Shown here: positions 4,163 to 50,378 of the stretch, piece by piece
Position numbering within the stretch: position 1 is the stretch's first letter
How the letters are laid out: each line of letters starts with the position of its first letter
Source of the DNA: Proteobacteria bacterium SG_bin7
Lineage (GTDB): Bacteria; Bdellovibrionota; Bdellovibrionia; Bdellovibrionales; SG-bin7
Length of the DNA: 64,000 nt
NCBI GenBank assembly: GCA_002083485.1
Contig: LWDK01000044.1
Coordinates: 12,613-76,612, forward strand
Reading direction: 5' to 3'
Made by a program: the position numbers and the translations under genes
Notes under the pieces: model-generated
The model's database searches: none
What the model was told of the DNA's origin: nothing
Seen by the model: the letters and a program-made list of their open reading frames with translations, nothing else

Positions 4163-5129
4163 GTTGTTTAGTTGTAAGGTATATATACCCGCCTCCTAAA
4201 CCAAACACAAAACAAATAATTTGATAAAGTGTAATAGAATTGGGACCCAATTGCGATTGCGTCCCCAAATACGTGTTAAACAGAGCAAAAAATGCCATTT
4301 GGCCAATACCAATTCCACCTGGGGTAATTGGCAACGACGAGGCCACAAACCCAAGTGGCACTAAAAACATGTAAGCACCAATGCTCATGTTAATTCCCAT
4401 GGAGTTTCCCACGACATAAAAAAACACAATCGAAGATATCTGTAAAAATATCGAAAGGACAACGGCCTTACCAATAACTGTGAGCTTCGTACAGTAGGCA
4501 TGAACTGCCGCGTAAGACTCTACCACGGCTTTGCCATAAGGAAGACTGCCAAACTTTTTAAACATCCATCCTGAATCATAAAAACGATCGGAAAACCCAA
4601 TTAACAACATGGTAGTAAAAATTGTTCCTGCTATGACAACACCTCTATAGGTATAGGAGAGTTTCGGATTTTCCATAATATCATTACCAATCAGTGGACC
4701 CGAAGCCACAACTAATAAAACGATCGTCCACAGCCCAAGCAACCTATCCATGACAATACTAGTAGCGGCTAAAAATTTTCGATCGTCGTTTTGCTTTACA
4801 AGGTAATATCCCTTGACCAAATCCCCACCCACTCCACCAGGAACGACAAAATTAAAAAATAGTCCGACCAACTGAAGTTTGAAAACATTTTTCATGCTAA
4901 TATTAAAGCCCTGACCATGCAGTAATAGTGACCACCTCAATGCCGACAGATAAATTCCTAATAGCACTAACACGACACAAAAAAAGAGCTCACTGAGAGT
5001 AATTGTTTTTAAAAGGTCTTCTGGATTAAACAAATTCTTTTCGATCATTATGTAAATGATCAGGACGGCAACGCCGACCTTAAAAAAGGGGACTAAATTC
5101 CCCTTTGTTCGCACGAAGATTTTGCTCAT
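4146..5129 (-). CDS. Flippase-like / lysylphosphatidylglycerol-synthase TM-region family membrane protein (UPF0104)
   Basis: Polytopic membrane protein of about 8 TM segments, with the VPGGVGGDLVKGYYL motif typical of the LPG_synthase_TM family. Confidence 0.6.
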   Translation of the reverse strand: MSKIFVRTKGNLVPFFKVGVAVLIIYIMIEKNLFNPEDLLKTITLSELFFCVVLVLLGIYLSALRWSLLLHGQGFNISMKNVFKLQLVGLFFNFVVPGGVGGDLVKGYYLVKQNDDRKFLAATSIVMDRLLGLWTIVLLVVASGPLIGNDIMENPKLSYTYRGVVIAGTIFTTMLLIGFSDRFYDSGWMFKKFGSLPYGKAVVESYAAVHAYCTKLTVIGKAVVLSIFLQISSIVFFYVVGNSMGINMSIGAYMFLVPLGFVASSLPITPGGIGIGQMAFFALFNTYLGTQSQLGPNSITLYQIICFVFGLGGGYIYLTTKQHEPIH

Positions 5130-5186: not shown

Positions 5187-5819
5187 CTACTCAGACTTTA
5201 GGCCACTGTAACGATCATAGGTAGATTTAGAATCATCCGCTTGACTCTTCCATTTCTTGACTTCTTTTTGGTAAGAAGCTTGTTTTGAAATCCAATTGGC
5301 CCGCTCACCTTCTGTAGCCTTTACACGCAAATCAATTTGGGTTCTTAATTCTGCCACATTTTTTCGCTGCTGATCCCATTCCATTTTTTCTTGATCAATC
5401 TGAACCAAACGCTCCTGGTAAGCATGAATGTTTTCTTCGCGCTTCATTTTATTGGCTTGAAGTTTATTGACTGCCTCTTGAAGTTTAGCGAGCTGCTCCT
5501 CCTCATTTTTTAATTTTTTATTCTCTTCTTCGATATGGGTGCCAACAGTAACTTTCTGCTTATCAAGCTCTTTTTTGTTAGCCTCGATCTGCTTGTCACC
5601 AAGATTTAACTGTTTACGCTGCTCTTTAAATGTATTTATGGCCTTGTCGATCTCAGCAATATTCTTATCGACCCTATCAAGATTTTCTTTGTACTGGTCA
5701 TAGTTATGACTACTATTTTCAGCGTTGCTTTTTAATTGGTCGAGTTTTTTATCAACATCTGTTCGCGACCACGCCGTTAAGCTTATCAACGAAACCAAAA
5801 TTATTAATAAGTCTCTCAT
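5187..5819 (-). CDS. Exported coiled-coil protein, unknown function
   Basis: Signal peptide MRDLLIILVSLISLTAWS followed by K/E/Q-rich heptad-like sequence. It lies 9 nt downstream of the 823-aa ORF on the same strand. Confidence 0.55.
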   Translation of the reverse strand: MRDLLIILVSLISLTAWSRTDVDKKLDQLKSNAENSSHNYDQYKENLDRVDKNIAEIDKAINTFKEQRKQLNLGDKQIEANKKELDKQKVTVGTHIEEENKKLKNEEEQLAKLQEAVNKLQANKMKREENIHAYQERLVQIDQEKMEWDQQRKNVAELRTQIDLRVKATEGERANWISKQASYQKEVKKWKSQADDSKSTYDRYSGLKSE

Positions 5820-18825: not shown

Positions 18826-18903
18826 TTAATACGATTGGAAATTATGATTCAGTGCGTGTATCTTGTCATTGTTGCAGCGATAGGCATTTAAATTATTTTT
18901 CAT
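18826..18903 (-). CDS. Candidate 25-aa mini-ORF (MKNNLNAYRCNNDKIHALNHNFQSY)
   Basis: Hand-translated. The ATG is preceded by AAAGGAG with a 4-nt spacer, directly after a long hairpin. There is no other support. Confidence 0.2.
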   Translation of the reverse strand: MKNNLNAYRCNNDKIHALNHNFQSY

Positions 18904-18915
18904 GATCTCCTTTAA

Positions 18916-18967
18916 CGAACGAAGCCGGCGCGCAACTCATGGGGGGTACGCGCCCCGGTTTCGTTCG
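18916..18967. terminator. Long GC-rich hairpin downstream of the prolyl oligopeptidase gene (probable terminator, possibly bidirectional)
   Basis: CGAACGAA-GCCGGCGCG ... CGCGCCCCGG-TTTCGTTCG. The outer 8 bp are perfectly complementary and the inner GC stem has a bulge. On the plus strand it is followed by GTTTTCTC; on the minus strand it is followed directly by an SD. Confidence 0.5.
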
Positions 18968-18992
18968 GTTTTCTCAAAACGAGAAGAAGACC

Positions 18993-21056
18993 TTAGTCCC
19001 TACCTAAAAAATACTCTAAGAAAGTAAACGACAAAGCCGTCATTTTTGCTTGCTGAATATTGTCCGCACTTCCGCCATGACCACCTTCGACATTTTCGTA
19101 AAGGTAAACGTCTTGACCCGCTGACAACATTTTGGCAGTCATTTTACGCGCATGCCCCGGATGAACGCGATCATCGCGGGTCGAGGTTTGGAAGAAGATA
19201 TAAGGGTATTTCACATCCTGACGAATGTTTTGATAGGGCGAATACTTCTCAATAACTTTCCGCATTTTTTCATCGGCGGGATCTCCATACTCACCTATCC
19301 AGCTTGCGCCAGGGGGCAATTGTGTATAACGAATCATATCTAAAAGGGGCACTTTACAAATCACAGCTTTAAATAAATCTGGTCTTTGCATAGCCACTGT
19401 GCCAACGAGTAATCCGCCGTTGCTACCACCCTCGATCGCAATATATTTGGGGCCTGTAATTTGTCTCTTTACCAAATCCTCACCGACAGCAATAAAATCA
19501 TCATAGGCAACCTGCCTCTTTTCTTTCAGAGCTGCCAAATGCCAGGCGGGACCAAACTCACCGCCTCCACGAATATTCGCTACGACATAAACTCCGCCAC
19601 GCTCAAGCCAAGCCTTTCCCACCACAGGGTTGTAATAGGGGGTTAGAGAAATTTTAAAACCACCATAACCGTAAAGCAATGTGGGGTTACTTCCATTTAA
19701 TTTATAATTTTTTGCGTGCACGATTGTATATGGAATTTTTGTTCCATCTTTACTAGTCGCCCAAAGCTGTTCTTCTACTAAGTCATTTGAATCAAAGAGT
19801 GGTGGCAACTGACGTAGCACCTGCACTTTACTTTTGCCCGCCAAGTACAATGTCGTTGGCGTGAGGTAACTGCCGTACCTTACTATGACTTCACTCTCCG
19901 TTTCGGCAACAAAGTCTAGCTCGGAGTGACCTTCTTCCGGTAAGTTGACCTGATACACGTCCCAATTTTTTTGACCACGAGTTAGACGCAAAATTTTTCC
20001 ACGAACATTATCTAAGACCCCAACATAGATCGCATCTTTAGATATGTTAAACCTTTCAATCACGCGCTTCTCAGTCGGAGCGATGACCAAACTGTACCGT
20101 GGTTTCTGTTTGCCAAGAACACTTCGCAAATCCACTGAAACCACTGAACCAGCAACATATTTGTTCCAGTCACTGCCGAGCTTGAAGAATAATTCTCCGT
20201 CCATTACTCCGCCGCCTTCAGAATCAAGAGGAATCGGAATCGGTAACAATTTTCCAGATTCGTCCACAACAAATGATTCGGAGGTATAAAAATCTATTGC
20301 TCTGCCGACAACGACGTACTTCTTGTTGTTGACCTCGATACTCATGGAGTAAACGGAAACATCAGTCACTTGACCTTCGTAAGTTGCGGCGACCTTTTTT
20401 AAATCTTCGCCGCGCTTCCATATCTTAACTGTGCGTGGGTATCCTGACGTGGTACGCGCATTCTCCTCAAGATCGTAGTCGACAAGCAAAGTATTTTCAT
20501 CGTGCCAAACTACGTTCGTTTTACTTTCTGAAATAAAGAAACCATTTTTTTTAAATTCCTTCTTTACTAAGCTAAATTCGCGCTTAACATTCGCGTCCTT
20601 TCCGCCACGCGATAAACTCACAATACAGTGGTCAGACGATTTTTTATGGCAATTCATGCCGCCATAAACCCAACTCTCATTTTCGGCCCTACCAAGTGCA
20701 TCTATATCTAAAACGGTCTCCCAGTTTTTTGATTTATTTTTATAATCTTCAATTTTCATGCGGCGATAAAGGCCACGAATATGTTCCGCGTCCGTATAAA
20801 GATTATAAATATATCCGTCACGAATACTCACGTCTGGAATTTTATCGGGGTTGTTTAAGACGTTCAGTGTTTCATCATAGGTTCTCTTGAAAACTTGTCT
20901 GTTTTCTAAAAGATCAAGCGAGCGTTGATTTTGTTCCTGTACCCAAGTTAATGCCTCCTTTTCTTGGACTTGTTCCAGCCAAAGAAATGGGTCAACCTCG
21001 TCACCCCGGACAACAAACGCAAAGCCTAAAGAAATTAAGAGTGTTTTTGAACGCAT
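18993..21056 (-). CDS. Prolyl oligopeptidase family serine peptidase (S9A), exported
   Basis: Signal peptide, beta-propeller-sized N-terminal region and catalytic Ser motif EGGSNGGLLVG. Asp/His region near the C-terminus (DDRVHPGHARK). Confidence 0.85.
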   Translation of the reverse strand: MRSKTLLISLGFAFVVRGDEVDPFLWLEQVQEKEALTWVQEQNQRSLDLLENRQVFKRTYDETLNVLNNPDKIPDVSIRDGYIYNLYTDAEHIRGLYRRMKIEDYKNKSKNWETVLDIDALGRAENESWVYGGMNCHKKSSDHCIVSLSRGGKDANVKREFSLVKKEFKKNGFFISESKTNVVWHDENTLLVDYDLEENARTTSGYPRTVKIWKRGEDLKKVAATYEGQVTDVSVYSMSIEVNNKKYVVVGRAIDFYTSESFVVDESGKLLPIPIPLDSEGGGVMDGELFFKLGSDWNKYVAGSVVSVDLRSVLGKQKPRYSLVIAPTEKRVIERFNISKDAIYVGVLDNVRGKILRLTRGQKNWDVYQVNLPEEGHSELDFVAETESEVIVRYGSYLTPTTLYLAGKSKVQVLRQLPPLFDSNDLVEEQLWATSKDGTKIPYTIVHAKNYKLNGSNPTLLYGYGGFKISLTPYYNPVVGKAWLERGGVYVVANIRGGGEFGPAWHLAALKEKRQVAYDDFIAVGEDLVKRQITGPKYIAIEGGSNGGLLVGTVAMQRPDLFKAVICKVPLLDMIRYTQLPPGASWIGEYGDPADEKMRKVIEKYSPYQNIRQDVKYPYIFFQTSTRDDRVHPGHARKMTAKMLSAGQDVYLYENVEGGHGGSADNIQQAKMTALSFTFLEYFLGRD

Positions 21057-41225: not shown

Positions 41226-41348
41226 ATATTTTTAAAAATGTAGCCATTGTGAAACCAGTGGTATCAAAAAAGCTGTTTGTTTTTTCATCATCAGTGATTT
41301 AATGGCTCCATAAAATATCGAAAATGTCCCAACTTTAGCCTTTACGCG

Positions 41349-41365
41349 TTGGCAGTGTTGTTGCT
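41349..41365 (+). promoter_or_regulatory. Sigma-54 (RpoN) -24/-12 promoter TTGGCAGtgttgTTGCT
   Basis: The GG and GC dinucleotides are spaced exactly as in TGGCAC-N5-TTGCW. It lies 108 nt upstream of the ATG at 41473. The same core occurs at 49902-49918 on the minus strand. Confidence 0.6.
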
Positions 41366-41472: not shown

Positions 41473-42357
41473 ATGAAAAGAACTCTTATTTCATTAATCG
41501 CGAGCGCAGCAGTTGCTGTTTCGCTTTCTGCTAACGCCCACGAAGGACACGGTCTTCCCGGCCCATCTGCTGGCGAAATCATTCAAACAGGAGTCAACGT
41601 CGTTGTAAACGTTGGTGACCTCGTAGTTAGTTTTGGCCAAACAGCTTTGGTTCGTTTTCCAAAGTCAGCTGCTGAAACTGCAAAAAATTTGGCAAAATGT
41701 ATTCATGACGGAATCCATGCAAATACAGCTGGCCAAGTAGTAACTACTCCAGTTCTTTGTCCGGTAACAATTGGAACTGAAGCCGCAACCGCAATCGTGC
41801 TCACTGGCCTTGCTGGTGCACAAGCAGTTGTTGCCGTTCCATCTAAATTTGCAAAAGAGATCGCTGCGATCTTTTTGAAATCCAGTAAAGAGGCGTGGGA
41901 TGCTTTGGCAAATTACAACCAAAACCCAATTTTCTGGCTTTTAAATCTTGGTGTTTGCGTTACTAACCACGTGATCGGCCGCGCTGCTCAATTAGGCGCT
42001 GCGGTGATCGATCTAGTTTCAACGACAGTTGGCGCAGTTGTAGAACTTGCCGTTGCTGGTGTTAGAACAGGCATTAAGTACGCTTCTGATGCAGTTATCA
42101 TGGTAGCTGATTGTGTTACTACTAAGGTAAAATTCCTTGGCAAAGAGCTATATGGCCTTGGCAAAGGAGTGTTGGTGTCGGCAGTAAAAGCTGGTCACCT
42201 TGATGTTAAGGGCGCTGCTCAATACTTTATGGATAACGTTGTTGCCCGCCTTGTAACTCTTCCTATTCGCATCATCACTGGTGAAGCATTAGGTACAGTG
42301 ATTGCGGGTTCATATCCAAAATACGAAGATGCTCGAGGCCCTATTTCTACTTACTAA
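41473..42357 (+). CDS. Secreted Ala/Gly/Val-rich protein of unknown family (P1)
   Basis: AAGGAG SD, signal peptide ...SLSANA|HEGHG and four Cys. C-terminal KYEDARGP resembles PYADARMG of the 316-aa protein at 47911. A/T-ending codon preference suggests high expression. Confidence 0.6.
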   Translation: MKRTLISLIASAAVAVSLSANAHEGHGLPGPSAGEIIQTGVNVVVNVGDLVVSFGQTALVRFPKSAAETAKNLAKCIHDGIHANTAGQVVTTPVLCPVTIGTEAATAIVLTGLAGAQAVVAVPSKFAKEIAAIFLKSSKEAWDALANYNQNPIFWLLNLGVCVTNHVIGRAAQLGAAVIDLVSTTVGAVVELAVAGVRTGIKYASDAVIMVADCVTTKVKFLGKELYGLGKGVLVSAVKAGHLDVKGAAQYFMDNVVARLVTLPIRIITGEALGTVIAGSYPKYEDARGPISTY

Positions 42358-44049: not shown

Positions 44050-46152
44050 TCACGCGGCGTTTCTAGAGTTCAAAAAACTACTGAGTTGAACGCCCAGTTC
44101 ATTGATATCACCTTCAGCAGTGTTAACAAGTTCACCTATATTTTCCCAAGAAAGATTTTCGGCGTGCTCGATAACGTCAAGCTTTTTACAAATGTCATTT
44201 GCAAAGAAGTTGGCGATAGTTCCACGTAACGTATGCGCTGATATTCGCAAGAGTTTGGCATCTTTTTTAGTAACAGCAGTTTGCAAATTTCCAAGAAGAT
44301 TCGGAACTGTTTTTAAATAGCCGTTTATAAATTTTATCAAAATTTCTTCGTCGCCGGCAAAATGCTGCAACAAAAGATCTTTATTCAAGTGAACTGTTTT
44401 TTGAGTCTGAACCTTATTGGTCTTGGCTTCTTCGTTAGCCATCGTTGTATTCGAACGAACCCTTAAAATCGCCTCAGCTAGGGAGATCACTGTAAAGGGT
44501 TTCGGAACAAAGTCATCCATACCGGCATCACGACAATACTTTTGATCTTTCATTGTGGCACTCGCGGTCAAAGCTATAATCCAAGGCTGTCTCTCTACCG
44601 CTAGTCGCCGTCGCAAGGTTTTAGTCGTAATATAACCATCCATTTCCGGCATCTGCCCGTCCATAAAAATAACGTCGTAAAATTTAGTATCAATGGCATC
44701 TAAGACTTCAAGTCCGTTTCCAACAGCATCCACGCGATAGCCTAGCATTTCCAGATACTGCTTTGCTAAAAGCTGGTTCGTAGAGTTATCGTCGGCAACT
44801 AAAATACTGTAGGGCTTCTTCCTGGCAAGATCTCTATCAAATTCAAAGCCATCAACCTCACCAGCATTTTTGCGATTTCCTTTTCTGGCTGAAACCTTAA
44901 ATGAAAAGGTCGTCCCAACCCCGAGCTGACTTTCAAAACCGATTGACCCGCCCATGGATTCGCAAATTCCCTTACAGATTACAAGGCCAAGACCAGTGCC
45001 ACCATATTTGCGTGTGGTCGATGCATCAACCTGAGTAAAGGATTGAAATAGCTTGTCCTTCACATCATCTGGGATGCCAATTCCAGAGTCTTTTATCGAG
45101 ACATTGATTTCAATTTTATCGTCCGATACCTCTTTAATAGAAGTAATAATGCAAACTTCTCCTTTTGGAGTAAATTTTATTGCGTTACCCACAAGATTAT
45201 TTAAAACCTGTCTTAAACGCGTTGAGTCCGTTAGAACCCAAAAGTCGTCAGGAATACTTGATTTCAGTGAGAGTCCTATTCCTTTATCTTTGGCGCGCGA
45301 GTTAAAAAGGATGATGACATCTCGTAAAAGCATATTCACGTTAAAATTAACATCTTCCAGTATTAATTTACCAGCTTCCATTTTTGAGAAATCCAAAATG
45401 TCATTTATTAAAGTTAAGAGTGTGTCTCCGCAGGTCGTCATTATATTTAAATAGTTTTTACCATCGTCTGAAAGGTTTTCTTTACGTAAGAGATTTGCCA
45501 TTCCTAAAATTCCGTTAATGGGTGTGCGAATTTCATGACTGACATTGGCAATAAACTGCGATTTGACATTCGCGGCTCGGTCGAGCTGAAGGTTTTTTTC
45601 TTTGAGCGTGTCTTCGATCTGTTCTCGCTCTAGATATTCGCGAGCTTGTGTACGGATTTGCAAAATCAAAAATAAGTAGTACGTAATAAGCATAAGTGCT
45701 AATGGCTCACCGGCAGAATGGGTTGCACTTAAAAAAAAAGGCGGTAATAACAGAAAGGTCAAAAAAAGCACCGCCCCGACAAAACTAGGAACCAAGGCTG
45801 TGAGTGCCGCTGCGGCTACCCCACAAGTCACAAGCAACAAAACTAATGTCGATGAATGTTGAATTCCATATTGATGAATTGCAAAGGAACAGAAACCACC
45901 CCATCCGAATGCAATCAAAGCCAATTGGATAAAAAATATCCGACTCTTAAAAATTCCGAAACGCAATAGTCGGGTCACATTTACAATTACAATGAGAGCA
46001 ATAAATGAGTGCGCAACTAACGGAAAATCTCTTTCAAGATCCGTAAAAAAATAAACCACGGTCGCTAGAACCATATGCCCAAAGGAACTACTGACAGCTC
46101 TTTTTGCGAGTTCTTTTTTGGATCTCGGAGAAATTGAAAAAAATGCCGACAT
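44050..46152 (-). CDS. Hybrid sensor histidine kinase / response regulator with C-terminal HPt domain
   Basis: Multi-TM N-terminus. HisKA SHEIRTPINGILGM. HATPase (DSGIGIP, GGTGLGL). REC (ILVADDNSTNQ...FMDGQMPEMDG). HPt (SAHTLRGTIANF). Confidence 0.9.
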   Translation of the reverse strand: MSAFFSISPRSKKELAKRAVSSSFGHMVLATVVYFFTDLERDFPLVAHSFIALIVIVNVTRLLRFGIFKSRIFFIQLALIAFGWGGFCSFAIHQYGIQHSSTLVLLLVTCGVAAAALTALVPSFVGAVLFLTFLLLPPFFLSATHSAGEPLALMLITYYLFLILQIRTQAREYLEREQIEDTLKEKNLQLDRAANVKSQFIANVSHEIRTPINGILGMANLLRKENLSDDGKNYLNIMTTCGDTLLTLINDILDFSKMEAGKLILEDVNFNVNMLLRDVIILFNSRAKDKGIGLSLKSSIPDDFWVLTDSTRLRQVLNNLVGNAIKFTPKGEVCIITSIKEVSDDKIEINVSIKDSGIGIPDDVKDKLFQSFTQVDASTTRKYGGTGLGLVICKGICESMGGSIGFESQLGVGTTFSFKVSARKGNRKNAGEVDGFEFDRDLARKKPYSILVADDNSTNQLLAKQYLEMLGYRVDAVGNGLEVLDAIDTKFYDVIFMDGQMPEMDGYITTKTLRRRLAVERQPWIIALTASATMKDQKYCRDAGMDDFVPKPFTVISLAEAILRVRSNTTMANEEAKTNKVQTQKTVHLNKDLLLQHFAGDEEILIKFINGYLKTVPNLLGNLQTAVTKKDAKLLRISAHTLRGTIANFFANDICKKLDVIEHAENLSWENIGELVNTAEGDINELGVQLSSFLNSRNAA

Positions 46153-47910: not shown

Positions 47911-48861
47911 TTAGTTGCTACGAGGGTCACGGTATCCTTGTGTATTGACTCCAGGAAATCGGGGGTCATAACCCATTCTTGCATCTGCATATGGAATCAC
48001 AACAGTCACCATTCCTGGTTGACCAATGTCGTTAGGCATACATCCAAGAAGAGCACCGTACACAAAGTTAGGAATAGTTTCCATAAGTTTGGAGGCTAGT
48101 GGTCCTGGCTGACTATTTCCGTCTTTATCTACGATTTTAATTTCTTTATAAGCCTCTGCTAAATCTGCACCCAGAACTGCGCGACCAAGACCTCGTATCA
48201 TATGTTGCGGAATATGTGGCAATTGAAAGGTCACATTTATAATAGCAGAAACGCGTTTTAAAATTTCTCCGCCAGCTTGCGCGAAAAGGCCAAGACCAGA
48301 AGACCCAAGGCCCAACATTGAGCTAAGTCCACCCATGAAAAAGTTTCTCGACTTCGCGGCTTTTTGCATGCTTTCTCCAGCTACCCCCAAGCCTGCTTGA
48401 GCTAAATTAACGGCATCGATATTAAGAGCATCGGCACTGTACTTAACAATGCCTTCGGTGAGATTACCAACTCCATCAGTAACATTGATGGTAGTATCGG
48501 TGATGCTTTGTAGAAAACATTCCACACGGCGCTGAAAACGAGTACCAAACTTTTTATAGTCTTCGGTGTTCAGTGGAGTTTTTGTGTCAATATTTCCGTC
48601 TTGATCTTTCAAGCCATCAAATGTTTTAAGCAGACAGCTTCCTGTACCGGTGACGTTCCACGCAATGCCTTGGTATTCGGCATTGCCTTTAGCGATTCTA
48701 ATAAAGTTATCTGGTAATTTATTAAATAGCGCGTCGCCAGTGCGTTCCAATAAGTTTCCGGGATCTTTTACTTTCGTATCATCAGGGCATCTATCTAAAG
48801 CTACGGCCAAGTTTGAAGTTAGAGAGAAGACAACTAAAGATAATGTCGCAAGACTTTTCAT
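47911..48861 (-). CDS. Secreted protein of unknown family (P3), paralogue of P2
   Basis: Signal peptide ...SNLAVA|LD. Block C76-C115 (CLLKTFDGLKDQDGNIDTKTPLNTEDYKKFGTRFQRRVEC) shares 17/40 ungapped identities with P2 C73-C112. GGAG SD. Confidence 0.6.
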   Translation of the reverse strand: MKSLATLSLVVFSLTSNLAVALDRCPDDTKVKDPGNLLERTGDALFNKLPDNFIRIAKGNAEYQGIAWNVTGTGSCLLKTFDGLKDQDGNIDTKTPLNTEDYKKFGTRFQRRVECFLQSITDTTINVTDGVGNLTEGIVKYSADALNIDAVNLAQAGLGVAGESMQKAAKSRNFFMGGLSSMLGLGSSGLGLFAQAGGEILKRVSAIINVTFQLPHIPQHMIRGLGRAVLGADLAEAYKEIKIVDKDGNSQPGPLASKLMETIPNFVYGALLGCMPNDIGQPGMVTVVIPYADARMGYDPRFPGVNTQGYRDPRSN

Positions 48862-48934: not shown

Positions 48935-49798
48935 TTAGTTCTTTTTAAGTTCAATTGAATATTGAGCTCTGTTAACGATTTCAAGAAGCTCTTTATCGTC
49001 TTCAGCAAGAAGTACGTTTGGAGCTAAGTTGAAAATGCCAGCGATAGTTGAGATTGCATCTGTAGCGGCATTGAATGGTTCGAAAGTAGCTAGCTCAGTA
49101 CCAACATAAGTCGCATTTTTAACAACGCCTTTTGAAGTTTGAACTACTAAGTGAAGGCGTTTAGCGGCTTCGATAGTAAGAGTGTATCCAGCTTCGCCGA
49201 GAACTTCAATCATAGCACCGCCGATAACACCCGCAGCTGGAGCAGCTACAAGAGGTAACGCAGGAGCCATGAATACTAAATCAGTACCACGGATAATCCA
49301 ACGCCACATTTTTGTAACTCCACCTTTGCTTTCTTCTTTAATGTGGTGACCAGCGCGTCCTACGTAGTGAAGAGCTTTTCCACCAAGAACAAGAGCTTTA
49401 ACCGCACCTGCAGTTGAATAATCCAAGAACACGAAAGCAACACCTTCAGCAGTTTGAATTACGCAAGTTGCAGTTTTTTGGAAACGTTTTGCAAACGCAA
49501 TGTACTCTTGAGCAGTAAGAGGAGAGTTAACATCGATGTTTCCGTTTTGATCTCTTTTACCATCACGAGAAGCAACAGCGCACTGAACTCCTTGAGAAGC
49601 AGTGTTCAAAACGTCTTCAACAAGTTTCATACCCAATGAAGCTTCTAATCCAGAAACTAGAACTGACTTAACAGTTACATTTTGCATCGCAGGTATTTTA
49701 GATGCATTTAGCTCAGCATTCATAGATGCAGAGTCATGAGCTAAGGCTGATGTAGCCAAAGCAATAGTTGCTACAACAGCAAATATTTGTCTTTTCAT
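48935..49798 (-). CDS. Secreted Ala/Gly/Val-rich protein of unknown family (P2)
   Basis: AAGGAG SD and signal peptide ...TSALA|HDS. Conserved Cys-bounded block shared with P3. A/T-ending codon preference suggests high expression. Confidence 0.6.
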   Translation of the reverse strand: MKRQIFAVVATIALATSALAHDSASMNAELNASKIPAMQNVTVKSVLVSGLEASLGMKLVEDVLNTASQGVQCAVASRDGKRDQNGNIDVNSPLTAQEYIAFAKRFQKTATCVIQTAEGVAFVFLDYSTAGAVKALVLGGKALHYVGRAGHHIKEESKGGVTKMWRWIIRGTDLVFMAPALPLVAAPAAGVIGGAMIEVLGEAGYTLTIEAAKRLHLVVQTSKGVVKNATYVGTELATFEPFNAATDAISTIAGIFNLAPNVLLAEDDKELLEIVNRAQYSIELKKN

Positions 49799-49845
49799 AA
49801 TTACGCTCCTTTAAAAAACGTATATATTGTTAGTAAAAATTACTT

Positions 49846-49866
49846 GGCGCGGGCCCATCCCACGCC
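49846..49866 (-). promoter_or_regulatory. GC-rich hairpin in the P2 5' leader
   Basis: The minus-strand RNA is GGCGUGGG-AUGGG-CCCGCGCC (8 bp including 1 G-U pair) followed by AAGUAAUUUUUA. It lies between the sigma-54 promoter and the SD. Confidence 0.4.
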
Positions 49867-49901
49867 ATAAAAACGAGATAACTCGATTCGGATGGTTCTT
49901 A

Positions 49902-49918
49902 AGCAAGTCTGCTGCCAA
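49902..49918 (-). promoter_or_regulatory. Sigma-54 (RpoN) -24/-12 promoter TTGGCAGcagacTTGCT
   Basis: The reverse complement of 49902-49918 reads TTGGCAGCAGACTTGCT with consensus GG/GC spacing. It lies about 104 nt upstream of the P2 ATG. The core is identical to the promoter at 41349. Confidence 0.6.
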
Positions 49919-50033
49919 TTGCCTTGGCAGTTGGTTGACGAAAATTGTCTTTTCAGACCTAAACTTTTGTAATATTTGTAGAGTTTAGCCGTCAAAACTC
50001 TAATGAGTTTGCGACATTTTTTGGAAATAAGCG

Positions 50034-50378
50034 ATGATCATTTACGAAGTCACACTCGAAATAGATTTTGAAATCATTGAAGAATTTCAAAATTGGTTGA
50101 TTGAACACGTCAACGAAATGTTGGCCACAAGATGCTTTACCTCTGCTGAAATTTTTACGGAAACGCCGAAGCTTTTACCTGCTGATGGCGCGAACAGCAG
50201 AGATTCAAATCACTTAAATCAATCTAAAGCGGTAGTTATACACTACAAAGTGGGGTCAGAAAGTGACCTAAATGAGTATTTTTTACGGCACGCTAGCCGC
50301 TTGAGGGCACCGGCAGTGCGCCAATTTGGCGCTAAATTTCGCGCCAAAAGGCGCGTTCTAAAATTGGGTCTTTCCTGA
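50034..50378 (+). CDS. DUF4286-like small protein
   Basis: MIIYEVTLEIDFEIIEEFQNWLIEHVNEMLATRCF resembles the DUF4286 N-terminal pattern (MIiYnVTv.id..i..eWl.Wm..eHip.ml.tg.F) as I recall it. Confidence 0.45.
   Translation: MIIYEVTLEIDFEIIEEFQNWLIEHVNEMLATRCFTSAEIFTETPKLLPADGANSRDSNHLNQSKAVVIHYKVGSESDLNEYFLRHASRLRAPAVRQFGAKFRAKRRVLKLGLS

Follow-up and report, generated by a model that had tools for sequence, protein, structure and literature searches.

A conserved sigma-54-type promoter prediction and a structured leader before a fast-evolving signal-peptide gene of a Bdellovibrionales-like genome

The spacer and its gene cluster

The DNA analysed here is a stretch of 64 kb (the window), 93% of which is coding. 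The spacer at 49799-50033 is the entire gap between gene 1 (48935-49798, minus strand), whose 287-aa product has a Sec-type signal peptide, and the DUF4286 gene that diverges from it, with its ATG at 50034. It contains a putative sigma-54-type promoter, P2, that faces gene 1. A sister element, P1, precedes the gene for a 294-aa protein (41473-42357) that also carries a Sec-type signal peptide. Judged by its sequence the host lineage of the P2 locus is Bdellovibrionales-like, and the sole relative of a neighbouring 130-aa protein in the genome collection comes from an uncultured Bdellovibrionales MAG. Every sequence feature that the sequence-only reading of this DNA had placed in the spacer was found at its coordinates when the minus strand was read.

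Gene 1 has few relatives and these are divergent. Neither its product nor the 294-aa P1 protein matched a Pfam or NCBIfam family; a large protein database (5.8 billion clusters) held only three to four relatives of gene 1, and protein-pattern scans for it in genome and metagenome collections gave no match. The AlphaFold model, built from a four-sequence alignment, had a pLDDT of 38, too low for use. Identity between orthologues is 34-41% for gene 1, whereas GcvP next to it reaches 81-91% and the 130-aa protein 84-97%. At the relative locus L005 the same promoter and leader are followed first by the gene for a 339-aa signal-peptide protein without significant similarity to gene 1. The idea that the P1 and P2 genes encode paralogues was also considered and rejected when no similarity was found between the products, yet a P1-family paralogue stands behind a P2-like promoter in another relative locus, L006.

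A strong hairpin, ACAGCTCCAC-TTCG-GTGGAGCTGT, lies just past the gene 1 stop codon (48913-48888, minus), with a folding energy of -19.8 kcal/mol (z = -5.6). An equivalent hairpin in L002 (~5312-5338) differs from that of the window by a compensatory change, and L005 has a canonical terminator with a U9 run at this position (4283-4345). Because of the strong hairpin after gene 1, P2 mainly serves gene 1; any P2 expression of the downstream paralogue and of the glycosyltransferase, HU and hybrid kinase genes would come by read-through. The presence of strong hairpins or terminators after gene 1 in each genome suggests that it is expressed well above the genes downstream. Gene 1 diverges rapidly and stands first in a cluster of secreted paralogues that is itself variable, with a strong hairpin of its own at its end.

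Several other features of this cluster were recorded. Gene 1 and gene 2 (47911-48861) share an insertion-like segment, DQ(N/D)GNID..(S/T)PL(T/N)..(E/D)Y, which the gene 1 orthologues of L002, L003 and P0004 lack. At the end of the cluster is a hybrid histidine kinase that is BarA/LuxQ-like and has an Hpt domain (44050-46152). In relatives (L006 13589-16235 and the P0004 contig) an H-NOX (HNOB) gene and small response regulators adjoin the kinase, an arrangement that suggests a gas-sensing phosphorelay; no sigma-54 activator was found adjacent to the hybrid kinase. In the Bdellovibrionales MAG the secreted-paralogue genes are interrupted by one for an HNH endonuclease (L005 1298-2380, equal to L007 19730-20812), another sign of a variable cluster. 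On the other side of the spacer, the 3′ part of the DUF4286 open reading frame contains two G+C-rich palindromes, GCGCCAAATTGGCGC and GCGCCTTTTGGCGC (50318-50332 and 50341-50354), and a copy of GCGCCAAATTGGCGC with its flank (atttagcgccaaattggcgc) is intergenic in L006 (18988-19002).

The putative sigma-54-type promoter

P2 reads TTGGCAGCAGACTTGCT (TTGGCAG-N5-TTGCT) at 49918-49902 on the minus strand, as found by direct reading and by pattern match. Its -24 element is TTGGCA(G) and its -12 element (C)TTGCT, with the GG at 49916-49915 and the GC at 49904-49903; the portion TGGCAGCAGACTTGCT at 49917-49902 matches the pattern TGGCA-N6-TTGC with exact spacing. The gene 1 ATG at 49798 is 104 nt from the end of the match. 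From standard sigma-54 geometry transcription is predicted to start at 49891 (minus), 12 nt past the C of the -12 element, and the leader counted from there would be ~93 nt long. P1, located by pattern match at 41349-41365 on the plus strand, reads TTGGCAGTGTTGTTGCT (again TTGGCAG-N5-TTGCT) and is 108 nt upstream of its gene.

Such matches are rare in the window. The pattern TGGCAN6TTGCW was found twice, against 0.35 expected; allowing up to one mismatch gave nine matches, seven of them intragenic. The two intergenic ones are P1 and P2, and both are perfect, correctly oriented and pointing at signal-peptide genes. A scan of the P2 spacer for sigma-70-like promoters found none, and manual readings of a -35/-10 pair for the divergent DUF4286 gene were unconvincing.

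The P2 spacer was aligned over four orthologous loci from Bdellovibrionales-like genomes (the window and the syntenic L002, L003 and L005); a fourth gene 1 homologue, P0004, is on a syntenic contig whose DNA falls outside this alignment. The block TTGGCA-N5-CTTGCTT is invariant at 15 of 18 positions, compared with 13-22% in the unconstrained stretches of the same spacer. Its N5 portion drifts (two of five positions invariant), so that what is kept is exactly TGGCA and TTGC. Among five distinct P1 orthologues TGGC and TTGCTATAG are likewise invariant around a variable spacer. The proposal that P2 is a sigma-54-type promoter with the core and geometry of P1 is thereby backed by alignment footprinting in four P2 and five distinct P1 loci.

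Three sigma-54-type matches occur in L006. One is the P1 of that locus; another, newly placed there, lies 27 nt before the gene 2 orthologue (55% identity); and from the third it is 96 nt to the gene for a 342-aa paralogue of the P1 protein (E = 7e-17), whose leader ends as that of P2 does (...TTATTAACGTTCTTTAAAGGAG). P1 and these three sites have unrelated flanks around GG-N10-GC, and in each case a start codon follows on the same strand after ~27-112 nt. This recurrence of GG-N10-GC in unrelated flanks before genes for predicted secreted proteins is the signature expected of a sigma-54 regulon.

The L006 locus is also rearranged (18889-19453 and 20560-20604). Gene 2 is preceded at 27 nt by a TGGCAATAAGATTGCA site of its own, and the P1-family paralogue on the opposite strand has the P2-like promoter and leader. 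Directly in front of DUF4286 lies a remnant of the P2 -24 region (TTGCCAACTGCGTTAACA), so that the break seems to have separated the -24 from the -12 element.

The sequence-only reading had drawn attention to a perfect palindrome around the -24 element, CTGCCAA-GGCAA-TTGGCAG in the minus-strand reading (49930-49912), with arms of 7+7 nt and a 5-nt spacer. It is present with perfect arms, the right one being the -24 element itself, which is why that arm is conserved (TTGGCAG in the window, TTGGCAA in the relatives). The left arm is CTGCCAA in the window and CTGTTAA, GTGTTAA or CTGTCAA in the relatives, giving the pattern (C/G)TGYYAA, and Watson-Crick pairing falls from seven of seven positions in the window to four or five of seven in L002, L003 and L005. 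Perfect 7+7 inverted repeats with spacers of 0-10 nt number 103 in the window, against 67 +/- 11 in shuffled sequence. The palindrome was ruled out as a functional site, the dyad being specific to the window and similar repeats being common by chance. On this comparison of sequences we regard it as incidental to P2.

Sites were scored with a matrix made from 29 ChIP-supported Salmonella sigma-54 sites (PMC3844500), a small set from a distant species. With this matrix from a distant species P2 scored 9.3 bits and P1 12.0, the training sites 16.1-23.5, and P2 ranked 11th in the window. The P2 score is low because G/A and C stand at positions -21/-20 in place of C/T and G; the composition of the spacer lowers it too, and all near-invariant positions are matched. 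The consensus of Barrios et al. 1999 is reportedly TGGCAC-N5-TTGCW. No RpoN box or GAFTGA activator signature was found in the 64-kb window or in 10 relative loci. Both Bdellovibrio bacteriovorus (bd0843) and Bacteriovorax marinus encode rpoN (PMC3464611, PMC3526173, PMC11209729). The literature that we searched reports the presence of rpoN-like genes only, with no description of sigma-54 promoters or of a sigma-54 regulon in Bdellovibrio-like predators.

The low matrix score and the lack of a sigma-54 machinery signature in these loci could also be read to mean that TTGGCA...CTTGCTT is the operator of some other protein, or belongs to a promoter class shared with the divergent DUF4286-gcvP operon, with the palindrome as a true binding site. 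The moderate conservation of the left arm as (C/G)TGYYAA, and that of the neighbouring blocks, would agree with this. Against it, the dyad symmetry is kept at only four to five of seven positions, GG-N10-GC recurs in unrelated flanks at P1 and the three L006 sites, and invariance within the block is confined to exactly TGGCA and TTGC while the spacer drifts. We hold an operator or other promoter class to be quite improbable, and P2 is probably a real sigma-54-type promoter. We infer its sigma-54 dependence from sequence only.

Upstream of P2 the block (G/A)(T/C)AAATATTAC (also GTAAATATTAC), at 49969-49979 on the minus strand (~-83), is invariant in nine of 11 columns. In relatives it forms the dyad GTAA-N3-TTAC, for which the window shows no enrichment. 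The block may be an activator site or, equally, the -10 element (TAATAT) of the divergent promoter. A motif shared by the two promoters occurs as AAAATGTCCCAA on the P1 side (41321-41332, plus) and as AAAATGTCGCAA on the P2 side (50009-50020, minus). The P1 copy is 18 nt upstream of the -24 element and invariant in P1 orthologues; the P2 copy, also upstream, is separated from the -24 element by 90 nt and falls in the 5′ part of DUF4286, the divergent gene, next to its start codon. Absent at P2 in L002 and L005, AAAATGTCSCAA was ruled out as a common upstream site of P1 and P2. The caution voiced earlier that a link through AAAATGTC(C/G)CAA was weak was well placed, with the motif invariant at P1 orthologues and missing from two of four P2 orthologues. 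A separate dyad, ACCAGTGGT, lies at 41254-41262, ~-118 of P1, inside the invariant block GTAGCCA..GTG.AACCA.TGGTA.CAAA; conserved in all P1 orthologues, it is a candidate activator site.

If P2 acts as predicted, sigma-54 RNA polymerase would bind at TTGGCA (-24) and TTGCT (-12), the closed complex would persist until an enhancer-binding ATPase bound upstream opens the promoter, and transcription would begin near 49891. As a promoter prediction, P2 is a control region of an ordinary type in an uncultured bacterium of an unstudied, Bdellovibrio-like lineage.

The leader

The predicted leader has three conserved parts: a G+C-rich stem-loop, an A/U-rich tract and a ribosome-binding block. The stem-loop, GGCGTGGG-ATGGG-CCCGCGCC (49866-49846, minus; ~+25 to +47), has 8-9 bp, the ninth pair being gained when it is extended to 49867-49845. 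After it comes AGTAATTTTTAC, whose T5 occupies 49839-49835. In the window it folds at -17.6 kcal/mol (z = -3.5), and energies for the four orthologues are -17.6, -11.0, -10.2 and -10.5 kcal/mol. For the seven stem pairs counted, all 28 of 28 cells in the four-locus alignment are standard pairs. Five of the seven vary, one by a GC<->AU change on both sides in two sequences and four through G.U wobble, although with four sequences the statistics are weak (the observed covariation score was reached in 61 of 500 shuffles). The apex, UGGGAUNGGCC, is invariant in the four loci. Since the opposite strand would have A.C mismatches in place of the wobble pairs, the conserved hairpin is a structure of the sense-strand RNA, and from the alignment we take it to be a real one. 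The hairpin claimed in the sequence-only reading thus folds in all four loci, maintained through wobble and compensatory changes.

Known RNA families did not account for it. A search of the window against Rfam 15 at gathering thresholds gave no match for the leader, and one over 49750-50050 at E up to 10, fourU included, gave chance-level matches only. The leader motifs occurred nowhere else in the 64-kb window, and in the metagenome collection the leader DNA pattern gave one chance match inside an unrelated gene.

The A/U-rich block, (A)AGUAAUUUUUACUAAC (49824-49844, minus), has its U5 run at 49839-49835; 12 of its 22 columns are invariant, with the pattern G.AA.UUUUA.UAAC. The translation-initiation block after it, ATACGTTTTTTAAAGGAGCGTAA (49801-49823, minus), is 23 nt long and identical in all four loci, and 24 of 25 columns are invariant over 49823-49799. 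It includes the Shine-Dalgarno sequence AAGGAG (49811-49806, minus), which is predicted to pair with a U6 run of the same block in a hairpin of 9 bp (-5.8 kcal/mol, z = -3.2). This hairpin is invariant in the four loci, so covariation is uninformative on the pairing.

The hairpin and U-run had been proposed as an attenuator or stability element. As an attenuator, or as the terminus of a short RNA made from the sigma-54-type promoter, they would end most P2 transcripts near 49835, and gene 1 would be reached by regulated read-through. Hairpin and U-run are both conserved, and a permissive terminator scan flags the hairpins of the window and L003, but not those of L002 and L005. Distance also weighs against termination: the U-run starts 5 nt past the G+C stem in the window, 7 in L003, 9 in L005 and 11 in L002, which makes a classical attenuator unlikely, whereas the U8-9 runs of true terminators in these related genomes abut the stem directly. 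RNAalifold can extend the stem to the U-run, where factor-assisted pausing would be possible, but only by weak U-A and U.G pairs and with an internal loop. No conserved alternative (antiterminator) helix was found in the leader, and a 12-codon upstream open reading frame, which in the window begins within the hairpin region, is not conserved, with ACG for AUG in L003 and other frames in L002 and L005. A short RNA would recall the Qrr sRNAs of Vibrio, or GlmY/GlmZ, in that P2 is followed by a hairpin and U-run within ~60 nt and its cluster includes a LuxQ/BarA-like hybrid kinase; it differs from them in its terminator geometry, which is poor and not conserved, and in its continuity with a strong ribosome-binding site and gene. 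We therefore rate a premature 3′ end here as unlikely, so that of the original proposal the attenuator part is weakened. A stability or regulatory role for the hairpin stays plausible, and it is more likely an element for mRNA stability or factor binding than a classical intrinsic terminator.

Control could instead act on translation, with the leader as the target of a CsrA-like protein that binds the invariant apex UGGGAU and AAGGAG, or with the Shine-Dalgarno sequence hidden in a temperature-sensitive hairpin of the fourU type. An invariant apex over a covarying lower stem suggests sequence-specific recognition, the 23-nt invariant block exceeds what a Shine-Dalgarno sequence needs, and the energy of the U6:AAGGAG hairpin given above favours masking. 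The GGA lies in the upper stem and not in a loop, however, the Rfam search at E up to 10 found no match even to the fourU thermometer, and the Shine-Dalgarno hairpin is without variation in the four loci. GGGAU is found in the P1 leader too, but a 5-mer common to two leaders is the chance expectation. Bdellovibrio has a functional CsrA with an implied part in predation (PMC13443453), which adds to the case for the protein option. Taken as the main role of the leader, translational control is doubtful in our view; from the sequence, some control is possible, either by masking of the Shine-Dalgarno sequence or by CsrA or another protein that binds GGA.

We thus prefer to see the stem-loop, with its covarying lower stem and invariant apex, as the part of the leader that would set mRNA stability or bind a factor. 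The E. coli ompA leader is a 5′ untranslated region with a stabilising stem-loop, and fourU thermometers (RF01795) mask the Shine-Dalgarno sequence. Like that of ompA, the P2 leader is long, belongs to the mRNA of an exported protein and contains a conserved stem-loop, but the stem-loop is ~25 nt from the predicted 5′ end and not at the end itself; it resembles fourU thermometers in having a U-run able to pair with the Shine-Dalgarno sequence, but has no Rfam match.

Comparison with known systems and meaning

Activator sites of sigma-54 promoters usually lie at -80 to -120. P2 agrees with canonical promoters of this class in TGGCA, in TTGC and in the spacing of GG and GC by exactly 10 bp, as well as in its intergenic, gene-facing position and its conserved blocks at -80 to -120; it differs in having G/A and C at -21/-20, not C/T and G. 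The genes served by P2 and P1 encode uncharacterised secreted proteins, unlike the nitrogen, flagellar or stress genes of known sigma-54 systems. Genes under sigma-54 for abundant structural proteins of the surface or the secreted fraction include the type IV pilin gene pilA of Myxococcus and Pseudomonas and the flagellins. Gene 1 resembles these in that a sigma-54-type promoter stands before the first, fast-evolving gene for an exported protein, probably highly expressed, with a strong hairpin or terminator after it and a sensor kinase in the neighbourhood. It differs in its Sec signal peptide, in having no similarity to pilins or flagellins and in the lack of an adjoining PilR-like activator.

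We tentatively suggest that the P2 promoter and leader form a conserved expression cassette of a Bdellovibrionales lineage, behind which secreted-protein genes that diversify rapidly or are even unrelated are swapped, and that the leader is a new cis-regulatory RNA that couples a sigma-54 signal to post-transcriptional control. The genes so placed might be the 287-aa family here, the 339-aa protein in L005 and the P1-family paralogue in L006. In the leader, the working parts may be the covarying stem with its invariant apex UGGGAUNGGCC, the A/U tract and the pairing of the U-run with the Shine-Dalgarno sequence. If this speculative reading is true, surface or secreted proteins of a predator would be under post-transcriptional control.

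The conserved P2 leader, known from four sequences only, may be a new RNA element. The conserved sigma-54-type promoters, two or three in number, all stand before genes for signal-peptide proteins of uncharacterised function that evolve far faster than their neighbours, and this set of promoters points to regulated surface or secreted factors that may be relevant to predation or to envelope biology.
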